Below, piece after piece: positions 43,596-48,445 of a DNA stretch of 64,000 bases. This stretch comes from Escherichia phage vB_EcoM-UFV09. The notes under the pieces were generated by a model that saw only the letters and a program-made list of their open reading frames with translations, had not been told where the DNA came from and ran no database searches. Each line of letters starts with the position of its first letter. The first letter of the stretch is position 1. Made by a program: the position numbers and the translations under genes. The DNA lies in sequence record MZ291552.2; one strand, 5' to 3'.

Positions 43596-44456
43596 TTATA
43601 CCGCCATCTTTCCTTTAATTGACGGATGAGATACATAGTTATTAAGAACAAAATTATGAGGCTTTGCAAATTGACTCAACCAAAATACCTGCGATTCTGT
43701 GTCCCATTCATCAAATTCATCTGGAAATTTTAATTGTAATTCGCATAAATCCATAGGTTCACGGCGTAAAATTTCTTTACATTGTTCTACGTGATTCATA
43801 TAGATATGAGTATTACCACCAGAAAATATCAAATCTCCAGGAATAAGATTACACATTTTAGCTACAATATGAACTAACGTAGCATATGATGCAATATTAA
43901 ATGGAAGACCGAGGAAAACATCTACCGAACGTTGATACCACTGCAAATCCAAATAGCCATTACGCACATTAAACTGATAGAACATATGACAAGGCGGTAA
44001 TGCCATATATTTAAGTTCAGCTGGATTCCATGCAGAAACAATTTGACGCCTATCATTTGGCAGTTTTTTAATACGATCAATAACTTCTATAATTTGGTCT
44101 ACACCGCCAAAATCACGCCACTGTTTTCCATAAATTGGACCAAGTTCACCACTATGGTATCCTAAATCTTTTGCTTGATTTTCGTAATTTTCATCCCAGA
44201 CTGTTTTGCCTTGAATTAATGAATCATGTTGAATTAATCGTAAATCATTGACATTTGTGCTTCCTGATAAAAACCATATTAGCTCAGCAATGCATGCATT
44301 CCAGGCGAGCTTTTTAGTTGTTACTGCAGGAAAGCCTTTAGTTAAATCCCAACGCAATTTAGTACCGAACAGAGCAATTGTTCCTGTGCCCGTTCGGTCA
44401 TCGGTTTCATAGCCATTTTCAAAAATGTCTTTAATTAAATCTTGGTATTGTTTCAT
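43596..44456 (-). CDS. td: Thymidylate synthase, intron-less
   Basis: 286-aa continuous ORF; N-terminus MKQYQDLIKDIFENGYETDDRTGTGT; active-site region PPCH. Confidence 0.9.
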   Translation of the reverse strand: MKQYQDLIKDIFENGYETDDRTGTGTIALFGTKLRWDLTKGFPAVTTKKLAWNACIAELIWFLSGSTNVNDLRLIQHDSLIQGKTVWDENYENQAKDLGYHSGELGPIYGKQWRDFGGVDQIIEVIDRIKKLPNDRRQIVSAWNPAELKYMALPPCHMFYQFNVRNGYLDLQWYQRSVDVFLGLPFNIASYATLVHIVAKMCNLIPGDLIFSGGNTHIYMNHVEQCKEILRREPMDLCELQLKFPDEFDEWDTESQVFWLSQFAKPHNFVLNNYVSHPSIKGKMAV

Positions 44457-44501: not shown

Positions 44502-44849
44502 TCAATACGGTTTAGCATCAAATTTTCTCTCAATTTCAGGCGTGAAATATAATTCTTTACCGCGTTTGGAAAAGCGACCAATAATATGATAATTATTCTC
44601 ATCAAACGTGATATTACCAATATCCATAGCTTTCAACCAAATATCGATATTTCTATCCAGCTTTATGTCAAAATTCCAATATGGAGAACTATTACCGAAA
44701 ATACTGCAAGCGGATTCAGTGAAACAACTGCTATAAATCTTGTCTTTAGGAACTACTAATTGATAGACACCTTTAATAAACTGAGGACCCTGCCACTTTG
44801 GCTGTTTCTCGTCTTTTTCTAATAGAATAGGGTAATAATTAAAATTCAT
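44502..44849 (-). CDS. Hypothetical protein encoded between frd and td
   Basis: 115-aa ORF filling a roughly 410-bp gap where T4 has frd and td overlapping. Confidence 0.55.
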   Translation of the reverse strand: MNFNYYPILLEKDEKQPKWQGPQFIKGVYQLVVPKDKIYSSCFTESACSIFGNSSPYWNFDIKLDRNIDIWLKAMDIGNITFDENNYHIIGRFSKRGKELYFTPEIERKFDAKPY

Positions 44850-44868: not shown

Positions 44869-45694
<826 letters not shown>

Positions 45695-45710
<16 letters not shown>

Positions 45711-46054
45711 TGAAAAGAGTCATGAGCATATCCGCTAGCGTCAATCATTTTAACTAAAGTTACCATTCCTCTGTTAACTGCTTGTGCGATTTCATCAAAA
45801 ACTTCATCACTATCATCGTAAAGATCATTAAAAAGTTCTAACACGTTCTTCTGAACTTTTAATTTACGGCCGACAATTTCCCCTACAGTAAATTCGTTTC
45901 CGCCAAATCCAGCGTAAAATGTAATTACACCCATTAACTGGCTTTCACGGGAATCTATGTCGTGTGATAAATTAATAAAAGCCGTCCCAGGCGCGGTTTT
46001 AAGTTGGCAACGAATTTTTACTTGGGTAATTCCAGTTATATGAATGTTAGACAT
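45695..46054 (-). CDS. Hypothetical protein (frd.2 position)
   Basis: 119-aa ORF. Confidence 0.55.
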
Positions 46055-46064
46055 AATATTTTCC

Positions 46065-46307
46065 TCAGACAGACTTTTTCACAATTTTCCAATCAGCTTT
46101 AAACTGATCAACATCAGAATGATAAATCCAGAATCCTGCGCTTTCTCCATCTTCATAAAGAGGACATCCATCGCATTCATCTTCCCATCCCATATCACGT
46201 AAAAGATGTTCAGCTTTTTCAATGAGTTCAGAATCTTTACCGATGATATTAAAATACCATTTACCTCTAACTTCCGAATCTTTGATGCTCTGGCGTTGTA
46301 ATCTCAT
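46065..46307 (-). CDS. Hypothetical protein (frd.3 position)
   Basis: 80-aa ORF with GAGGAG RBS. Confidence 0.55.
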   Translation of the reverse strand: MRLQRQSIKDSEVRGKWYFNIIGKDSELIEKAEHLLRDMGWEDECDGCPLYEDGESAGFWIYHSDVDQFKADWKIVKKSV

Positions 46308-46367: not shown

Positions 46368-46670
46368 TTATTTTTGAATTTTATCTAGCCACTTACCAAG
46401 CTTAATCATTTCTTTAGTAGCCTTTTCCATACTTCTGAACTTAACCAATAGAGGATAGGTATCGACACTCATAACTAAATTGGTTGCAAGACTGTGTTCA
46501 CCCACAAGCCATAACGAATACGTTTGAATATCGAGTCCGTAATTTCTGTCTTTATGGACCCGTACACCCATCACTTCAAATTTCTCACTAGCTTTTTCTA
46601 CCGCATCCAGGAAATCATCTTTAGTCATATTAGGCCTTAAAAGTTTTTCGCAAAAGTTCAATGATTTCAT
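46368..46670 (-). CDS. Hypothetical protein
   Basis: 100-aa ORF. Confidence 0.5.
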   Translation of the reverse strand: MKSLNFCEKLLRPNMTKDDFLDAVEKASEKFEVMGVRVHKDRNYGLDIQTYSLWLVGEHSLATNLVMSVDTYPLLVKFRSMEKATKEMIKLGKWLDKIQK

Positions 46671-47016
46671 CTACATTGTTTTCGTCAACAATACAGTGAA
46701 TTTTTGTTACGCCAGAAACTATACCTTCATTAGCGGATTGAGGCTTTTCTAAAGTTACCTCAGTAAAGTATTTGAATTCTTCAGGGTAAATCTCAAAATA
46801 CGTCTCAAGTGGGCCACCCGCCATGTATTCAGTGCCATCTTCCATAGTTACACGTACCACACATTCACCAGTACAATCATCACTTTCCATTTCATCTACA
46901 ACAAAACTAGGTCCGTGCTTCTCTATTAAATTTAGCATCATTACATTGCAACGGCACTCGTTAGCAAAGTCATTTTTAAATAAAGGGTTAATGATATAAG
47001 TTTTTCCAACTTCCAT
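46630..47016 (-). CDS. Hypothetical protein
   Basis: 128-aa ORF. Confidence 0.5.
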   Translation of the reverse strand: MEVGKTYIINPLFKNDFANECRCNVMMLNLIEKHGPSFVVDEMESDDCTGECVVRVTMEDGTEYMAGGPLETYFEIYPEEFKYFTEVTLEKPQSANEGIVSGVTKIHCIVDENNVDEIIELLRKTFKA

Positions 47017-47061
47017 TTTGATTTCCTCATTTTAACGGGGCTATTATAGCCCCCTTGATAA

Positions 47062-47292
47062 TTATTGTTCAATCAATCCCATGTAAAATTCTGCGTCTTC
47101 AGAATCCATACCATCACAATATTCATTAGCCATAAAGCGGGTGAGGTCTTCAAGAGGACCTTCAATGACAATAGAAAAATTGCAATAATTGGGATCATCA
47201 TGAATACTTGTGATACTAAGTTCAGGATAACGATTACGAATAGTCTCTTCAATATATTCAAAATCAACGATGTCAATATCAACTTTAGCCAT
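47062..47292 (-). CDS. Hypothetical acidic small protein
   Basis: 76 aa from MAKVDIDIV with AGAGGA RBS; the track ORF extends upstream. Confidence 0.5.
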
Positions 47293-47384
47293 ATTATTTT
47301 CCTCTTTAATCATCAGCAGTATTGCCGATAGTTGTATAGTACCATGGAAGGACAAGGATGTAAACAGTTTTGTGAAAAATTTTT

Positions 47385-47415
47385 GAAATAAAAAAAGGGG
47401 ACCTCTAGGGTCCCC
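47385..47415 (-). terminator. Rho-independent terminator downstream of gene 32
   Basis: ggggacc-tctag-ggtcccc hairpin followed on the minus strand by a long U tract. Confidence 0.7.
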
Positions 47416-47437
47416 AATTAATTAGTAATATAATCTA

Positions 47438-48346
47438 TTAAAGGTCATTCAAAAGGTCATCCAGGTCCGTGTCATCAGCACTAGATGAACTGCCAGAGCT
47501 TGAGCTCATAAAATCATCTTCAGTTTTTGTTTTGAAGTCATCAACATTGAATGCATCCAAATCATCAGCAACTTTATCAGCTTTCTTAGCAGCAGTTGCA
47601 GCGGCACCGCCCATCACAGCAGTTCCCATAACTTGACCGAATTTAGTATTCAGTTCTTCAAACGATTTGAATTTATCTTTAGAAGTCATTTCAGAAAGGT
47701 CAACCATTTGTTCGAACAGTTCTTTCTGGAAAGATTCATCGTCAATGTTTGGAATCGCAGATTGATTCAGGAATTTAGATTCGTCGTAGTTACTAAATCC
47801 AGAAACTTGTTTAACTTTCAATACAAAGTTAGCACCTTCCCACGGACAAGTTACATCAACCGGAGTTTCACCCATTTCAACATCAACTGCAATCATTGCA
47901 TTGATTTTATCCCAGATTTTCTTACCGAAACGGTATTTAAATACTTTACCTTCATTTTCTGGAGCAGCTGGGTCTTTTACTACAAGAATGTTAGCCCAGT
48001 AAGAAGTTTTACGTTTAACAAGACCGTACTCTTTATTGTCAGTGTTGTACAAATCATTTTTACTGATGTACTGACATACTGGACAAGAATCGTAATCACC
48101 GTGTGTAGATGAACAGTTTTCAATATACCATTTACCATTTTTCTTGAAACCGTGATTTACAAGAATTGCGAATGGTGCTTGTTCATCATTTTTAGACGGA
48201 AGAAAACGAATTACTGCTTGACCGTTACCCGCATTGTCGAGTTTCAGTTTCCACTCGCCTTTATCTTCAGAAGAAAAACCACCTTTATTTCCAGCCAGTT
48301 TAGCCATTTGTGCAGCGAGTTCAGCAGTAGATTTACGTTTAAACAT
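47438..48346 (-). CDS. 32: Single-stranded DNA-binding protein
   Basis: 302 aa; N-terminus [17 protein letters not shown]; Ser/Asp-rich acidic C-terminus. Confidence 0.95.
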
Positions 48347-48430
48347 TTTTATTTCCTTTTTAATTTAATTAACAGTTGGTGCTATGACGATGTATGACCT
48401 CATAGCTGGTCAGTGAGATAATTATAATCT
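48347..48430 (-). promoter_or_regulatory. Gene 32 autoregulatory translational operator (A/U-rich site plus upstream pseudoknot-forming leader)
   Basis: mRNA-sense sequence UUAAUUAAAUUAAAAAGGAAAUAAAAAUG directly before the start codon, with GC-containing complementary segments upstream. Confidence 0.65.
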
Positions 48431-48445
48431 ATTTATAATAAGCAA

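Follow-up and report, generated by a model that had tools for sequence, protein, structure and literature searches.

The window, by which we mean the whole stretch of 64,000 nucleotides from Escherichia phage vB_EcoM-UFV09 (sequence record MZ291552.2), is, judged by its sequence, that of a Tequatrovirus, a T4-like phage. All genes at the locus studied here are carried on the minus strand, namely td, a 115-aa ORF, frd, six small ORFs, gene 32, and gene 59, with the six small ORFs lying consecutively between frd (44869-45453) and gene 32 (47438-48346). Over the 4-kb locus, Escherichia phages vB_EcoM-UFV05, -06, -10, and -11 have the same sequence (100% identity), and many other Tequatrovirus genomes are 95-97% identical. 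About 630 records matched the stretch from frd.1 to gene 32 in a DNA search, and T4 covered 51% of the region at the DNA level. The locus is already known, as it is identical to deposited phage genomes and its six small proteins belong to PHROG or Pfam families, and the gene layout was annotated in phage RB51 in 2009.

Starting from the frd side, the first small ORF encodes an acidic protein of 81 aa (45453-45698) of the RB32ORF231c family (phrog_3183) that is not found in T4. It is followed by an ORF of 119 aa (45695-46054) that corresponds to RB51ncORF237c and is labelled RB51ORF237 in T6; its product matched Pfam DUF7247 (PF23905) with 121.6 bits (E 2.8e-35, cutoff 27). The other four are the frd.1 orthologue (80 aa, 46065-46307), an accessory ORF of 86 aa (46368-46628) of the RB51ncORF239c/phrog_4423 family, the frd.2 orthologue (128 aa, 46630-47016), and the frd.3 orthologue (76 aa, pI 4.05, 47062-47292). 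All six had a PHROG family match (E <= 3e-36), and a Shine-Dalgarno-like motif was present for each, as the preliminary description of this DNA had stated for the ribosome-binding sites of the three ORFs nearest gene 32.

In the T4 reference (NC_000866), the same interval contains only frd.1 (80 aa), frd.2 (128 aa), and frd.3 (75 aa). The ORF list and the T4 annotation thus agree with the earlier count of six small ORFs against three in T4. The identities then given to the ORFs fared worse. The three ORFs in 46368-47355 had all been taken as additional to T4, and the 80-aa ORF had been assigned the position of frd.3. However, the 80-aa product was 98% identical to T4 Frd.1 by BLASTP, lies at the orthologous position, and matched Pfam DUF5417 with 115.4 bits (E 1.4e-33, cutoff 23.9). 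The 128-aa product was 45% identical to T4 Frd.2, which has the same length (128 aa; BLASTP, E 8e-29), and matched positions 2-95 of the 96-position Pfam profile FRD2 (PF03197) with 116.4 bits (E 1e-33, gathering cutoff 29). The 76-aa product was 86% identical to T4 Frd.3 by BLASTP and matched Pfam Phage_FRD3 (PF05798) over its full length with 129.8 bits (E 5.5e-38, gathering cutoff 28.1). The sizes of the T4 genes had therefore been assigned to the wrong genes. A check against the T4 reference showed that both the 128-aa and the 76-aa ORF have T4 counterparts, and the 86-aa ORF is the only one in the span without one. Two of the three flagged ORFs thus have matching sequences in T4, so that the earlier reading is partly refuted on its own terms, although the T4 count is still three. 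Of the six ORFs, three are absent from T4, and only one of these lies in the flagged span. The other two lie at 45453-46054, between frd.1 and frd and outside that span.

We considered whether the three ORFs adjoining gene 32 might still be insertions beyond frd.3 with no T4 counterpart. The ORF count does exceed that of T4 by three, and the 128-aa ORF differs so strongly from T4 in its N-terminal part that it looks foreign at the DNA level. However, the 128-aa and 76-aa ORFs belong to FRD2 and Phage_FRD3 according to both BLASTP and Pfam, the positions and lengths of Frd.2 and Frd.3 are as in T4, and the flanking terminator, promoter, and ribosome-binding site are conserved with T4, which leaves this explanation with hardly any credibility. 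Corrected labels for frd.1, frd.2, and frd.3 are one addition of the present analysis.

The divergence of frd.2 is confined to one part of the gene. Of the last 30 residues of Frd.2, only the final one differs from T4, with A in place of K. Across alleles, this C-terminal segment (VSGVTKIHCIVDENNVDEIIELLRKTFK) is nearly invariant, and T-even phages carry at least three classes of alleles for the N-terminal ~95 codons, with ~89 records of the window type and ~155 of the T4 type, giving frd.2 a mosaic appearance. The N-terminal beta-domain of T4 Frd.2 has been predicted to be LSm-like and related to GoF and MotB.1, and this published prediction includes a possible RNA-binding role (PMC12152347). 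The 128-aa protein of the window shares Pfam FRD2 with T4 Frd.2, which is placed in the GoF/MotB.1/Frd.2 LSm-like family by Kim et al. 2025 (PMC12152347). It should be noted that the prediction was made for T4 Frd.2, and that the N-terminal domain bearing the predicted fold, a bent five-stranded antiparallel beta-sheet, is the diverged part here. Amber mutants of frd.2 had similar EOPs on suppressing and nonsuppressing hosts (PMC12152347), and frd.2 was the only T4 gene of unknown function scored as 'Fit' by CRISPRi-ART (PMC11879866).

The ribosome-binding site of frd.3 is AAAGAGGAAA. A 97-aa reading of frd.3 started at TTG and extending up to 47355 was rejected as an over-extension. Frd.3 aligned to positions 317-391 of the 391-position phrog_1764 profile; this match at the profile end alone suggests that some family members are much longer proteins with a Frd.3-like C-terminus. 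In T4, frd.2 and frd.3 are expressed as early RNA and early protein, and frd.1 as early RNA and middle protein (supplement of PMC9697503). Among the T4 RNAs that carry an NAD cap, frd.3 mRNA is one of the abundant ones (bioRxiv 10.1101/2024.04.04.588121). Frd.1 and the 81-aa protein both contain a CxxC motif, and a paralogous relationship between them was rejected (BLASTP E = 8).

Putative transcription signals surround these genes, all read on the minus strand. An intrinsic terminator (47397-47415; GGGGACC-CTAGA-GGTCCCC followed by a T run) lies directly past the stop codon of gene 32 and is identical in T4. Its hairpin is upstream of a T4-type early promoter (47364-47336; TTTACA-N17-TACTAT with TG before the -10 box), which is located 5' of frd.3 and conserved in T4. 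A second promoter of the same form (46364-46336), 5' of frd.1, is combined with a 12-bp stem-loop (46356-46330) into an element of the PeSL type (46364-46330). The stem overlaps the -10 box and has a folding energy of -15.2 kcal/mol (z -2.05). In T4, the frd.1 promoter element sits directly past the frd.2 stop codon. Exact matches to the T4/PST-type consensus TTTACW-N17-TAYWAT (PMC4122927) numbered eight in the window against 0.32 expected, and seven of the eight were on the minus strand. The early-promoter-like elements of the preliminary description are thus present as two exact consensus matches, but they would serve frd.3 and frd.1 and not the extra ORF.

The element at 46364-46330 resembles the PeSL (promoter-early stem-loop) cassettes, mobile regulatory elements described previously in T4-type phages (Arbiol 2010, PMC2839356; Comeau 2014, PMC4122927). 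It lies between genes, shares the T4/PST consensus and the overlapping stem-loop, and has neighbouring ORFs that vary between close relatives. However, the 86-aa ORF has such an element on one side only, and its other junction is the stop codon of frd.2. Promoter and terminator activity as well as ORF mini-circles belong to the PeSL cassettes of PMC2839356, whereas the element described here is known from its sequence.

A GC-rich hairpin without a T run (47056-47034; -13.7 kcal/mol, z -3.99) is conserved between frd.3 and frd.2. Its loop contains a perfect TATAAT 18 nt past TTGAAC (47072-47043, minus strand), with 10 of 12 consensus matches, and frd.2 and the 86-aa ORF may thus have an additional weak promoter. 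T4 has kept the hairpin, but with a different loop that lacks the -10 box. Structured RNA in the region was rejected as an explanation, since Rfam gave a chance hit only.

The 86-aa ORF fills the interval from the frd.2 stop to the second promoter exactly. Its ATG lies 1 nt past the frd.2 stop, and a UAAGG Shine-Dalgarno motif is found inside the last frd.2 codons. The preliminary description, although right that this ORF is absent from T4, had overestimated its length by 14 codons: the 100-aa reading uses an upstream ATG that falls inside frd.2. We assign 86 aa because the second ATG is the start in all homologues, in the GenBank annotation, and in the PHROG profile, whose alignment begins at residue 15 of the longer reading. 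The match to phrog_4423 covered profile positions 1-86 of 86 (E 3.6e-48). Compared with Dhakavirus WG01, the ORF showed 22 synonymous and 6 non-synonymous differences (dN/dS 0.05), and all amino-acid changes fell in residues 48-58, a single loop. The 86-aa ORF is, by this substitution pattern, a real gene under strong purifying selection. That it is a chance open frame and no gene might be proposed from the lack of its own promoter, a Shine-Dalgarno motif of only 5 nt, and the lack of a Pfam family. Yet a dN/dS of 0.05 over 28 substitutions, the strength of the PHROG match, and a family of exclusively single-domain proteins in 21 clusters at 90% identity (12 at 50%) make a chance frame extremely improbable.

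The 86-aa ORF was found in 198 phage records by DNA search and its family in 349 by tblastn. The family is restricted to virulent phages of enterobacteria, in which three lineages without relation to one another carry it: the T4-like phages, the T1-like phages (ADB-2 and ~50-kb Klebsiella siphoviruses), and Phapecoctavirus. The 12 representatives at 50% identity came from an exhaustive HMMER search of 1.84 billion representative proteins, which revealed no fusions of the family. All relatives had a length of 64-98 aa, and those of 64 and 73 aa, the shortest two, cover only part of the profile. No match to the 86-aa protein was found in Pfam, NCBIfam, or PADLOC, and the best match in a profile search of PDB sequences had an E value of about 1. 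An AlphaFold2 model of moderate confidence (pLDDT 68.9) had an alpha-beta-beta-beta-alpha order, for which RNA-binding folds of the SRP9/14 and dsRBD-like kind were considered as possible relatives, and fold searches with this model (pLDDT 69) gave no specific structural neighbours. Overall, family, motif, and fold searches returned no functional assignment for the extra ORFs and speak neither for nor against the host-takeover or anti-defence functions suggested in the preliminary description.

The location of the 86-aa ORF 1 nt past frd.2 in two genera would be explained if its product were a partner of Frd.2, such as a cofactor or modulator kept at a fixed ratio by translational coupling. 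Consistent with such a role, the stop-N-ATG junction and its flanks are identical in Tequatrovirus (the window and RB51) and Dhakavirus WG01, and a CRISPRi screen found an effect of frd.2 on the fitness of T4 (PMC11879866). However, most T-even phages carry frd.2 without the 86-aa ORF (198 versus about 630 records), the family members in T1-like phages, Phapecoctavirus, and metagenomic contigs have no FRD2 neighbour, and the profiles of the two families show no similarity. We therefore regard a Frd.2 partner as unlikely. That the 86-aa ORF strictly accompanies frd.2 was rejected, as distant members occur in contigs of non-T4 phages with no FRD2 gene nearby. The 86-aa protein as a paralogue of Frd.2 was also rejected (hhalign probability below 1%), and neither profile nor fold relates it to the LSm-like family.

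The same distribution bears on a role in the conflict with the host. The 86-aa protein, and possibly also the DUF7247 and 81-aa proteins, could be factors for anti-defence or host takeover that unrelated virulent phages of enterobacteria exchange horizontally. The patchy occurrence of the 86-aa ORF within Tequatrovirus, its family's presence in three unrelated phage lineages, the strong purifying selection, the placement in an early transcription unit, and the gathering of amino-acid changes in one loop (residues 48-58) are all consistent with such a role, which we put forward as a tentative proposal, well short of probable. That phrog_4423 in particular is an uncharacterised early host-takeover or anti-defence factor without recognisable fold relatives is conceivable but doubtful. 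The family shared by T4-like phages, T1-like phages, and Phapecoctavirus is nevertheless a reasonable candidate for anti-defence and host-takeover screens. This widely exchanged and strongly constrained family is the only lead from the cluster, and a modest one; the cluster is otherwise ordinary.

At the start of the 86-aa ORF, the junction (stop-N-ATG and flanks) is identical in the window, RB51, and Dhakavirus WG01. Phages without the ORF (T4, T6, T2, and phiD1) all have one junction, AAAACTTTCAAAAAGTAG-TTTACA, whatever their frd.2 allele. A simple microhomology deletion of the 86-aa ORF was rejected, since the T4 junction was not exactly reproduced and frd.2 would lose its stop codon. We considered both gain and loss of the ORF, and the microhomology seen at the junction is suggestive only.

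The other two genes absent from T4 are arranged tightly. The 81-aa ORF abuts the start of frd and overlaps the stop codon of the DUF7247 ORF by ATGA (45695-45698). The pair matched 457 records in a DNA search, 220 of which contained both genes, and PF23905 was recognised in all 18 clusters of DUF7247 homologues. The model of the DUF7247 protein had five strands and two helices (pLDDT 69), and a fold search found no specific neighbours for it. Structural and profile comparisons of DUF7247 with Frd.2, Hfq, and SH3-like barrels revealed no similarity, and DUF7247 as a paralogue of Frd.2 was rejected (hhalign probability below 1%).

In T4, frd.1 and frd are separated by a spacer of 71 bp (L004 692-762), which we compared with positions 45440-46075 of the window. 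The spacer retains the ribosome-binding site, the ATG, and ~45 nt (~80% identical) of the 5' end of the DUF7247 ORF, leaving a 16-codon remnant ORF that joins the last ~15 nt of the 81-aa ORF and then the start of frd. Since the 5' end of the DUF7247 ORF remains, the T4 lineage most likely lost the DUF7247 and 81-aa ORFs through a deletion of ~545 bp. Laboratory T4 would accordingly represent a depleted state of the cluster with a recognisable deletion scar, which we add to the published picture. The ATGA overlap, the joint loss in T4, and one metagenomic fusion suggest that the DUF7247 and 81-aa ORFs are possibly a two-gene module. The fusion is a 196-aa metagenomic protein (P0038) in which the two are joined in frame; it may hint at such a module or may be an assembly frameshift. 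In T2, the 81-aa ORF follows frd.1 behind the same 10-nt spacer, which suggests that the DUF7247 ORF behaves as an ATG-to-ATG cassette.

Gene content differed among the named relatives. RB51 (FJ839693) has the same six-ORF layout as the window (frd.3, frd.2, RB51ncORF239c, frd.1, RB51ncORF237c, RB51ncORF236c), with the 86-aa ORF directly past frd.2 and the DUF7247 ORF past frd.1. Its frd.2 allele is that of the window (98.5% DNA identity), but the 113-aa RB51ncORF236c takes the place of the 81-aa ORF. T4 shares the frd.1, frd.2, and frd.3 orthologues in the same order, the gene 32 terminator, the two early promoters, and the ribosome-binding sites. It differs in the lack of the 86-aa ORF, the DUF7247 ORF (5' remnant only), and the 81-aa ORF and in its frd.2 N-terminal allele. 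T6 contains the DUF7247 ORF and the 81-aa ORF (RB32ORF231c) at 95% DNA identity, as well as the 115-aa ORF between td and frd; unlike the window, it has no 86-aa ORF, and its td intron is present. T2 and phiD1 have only the 81-aa ORF of the three non-T4 genes and lack the 86-aa ORF. As annotated in these relatives, two of the three genes occur in RB51, two in T6, and one in T2.

We conclude that the interval is very probably an ordinary T-even early accessory cluster between gene 32 and frd that is fuller than that of T4. This arrangement also fits the view, put forward in the preliminary description, that such early accessory regions are plastic. In the predicted order of transcription on the minus strand, gene 32 and its terminator are followed by the first early promoter, frd.3, the hairpin, frd.2, and the 86-aa ORF, and then by the second early promoter with its PeSL-type stem-loop, frd.1, the DUF7247 ORF, the 81-aa ORF, and frd. 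By analogy with T4, the host sigma-70 RNA polymerase would read the cluster from the two promoters as soon as infection begins. Lacking its own promoter, the 86-aa ORF would be translated from the frd.3-frd.2 transcript, with its translation probably coupled to that of frd.2 through the stop, 1 nt, ATG arrangement. Gene content may shift through recombination at short conserved junctions, such as ribosome-binding and start sequences and the promoter/stem-loop element, for which recombination in PeSL cassettes provides a model of gain and loss (PMC2839356).

The products of the cluster are small, mostly acidic, non-enzymatic proteins. The extra ones may be dispensable infection modulators that bind host or phage macromolecules, possibly in counter-defence, a suggestion that we consider plausible but on balance not probable. 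Beyond the corrected labels and the T4 scar, the analysis adds a short list of three early accessory genes, conserved and clearly coding, whose function is unknown.

Several minor features of the surrounding region were also observed. The 115-aa ORF between td and frd (44502-44849, minus strand) belongs to the RB32ORF229c family (phrog_1928). It is absent from T4, where td and frd overlap, and in the RB51 annotation it is flanked by a 9-bp repeat. In the window, td (43596-44456) contains neither the intron nor I-TevI, and the interval between genes 32 and 59 (48347-48445) has no segG homing endonuclease gene, unlike T4. A 34-aa CDS annotated in the UFV05 GenBank record (47313-47417, minus strand) overlaps two regulatory elements, the terminator of gene 32 and the early promoter of frd.3, and we regard this gene call as almost certainly spurious. 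Between the frd.1 early promoter and frd.1, T4 and T6 contain an unannotated hydrophobic micro-ORF of 22 codons (MFAPYIMAAVMLVCLYLLIKAC*) with a GGAG ribosome-binding site, which was not found in the window, RB51, T2, or phiD1. In T4, it lies at L004 1016-1084 (minus strand), corresponding to positions 146015-146083 of AF158101/NC_000866.
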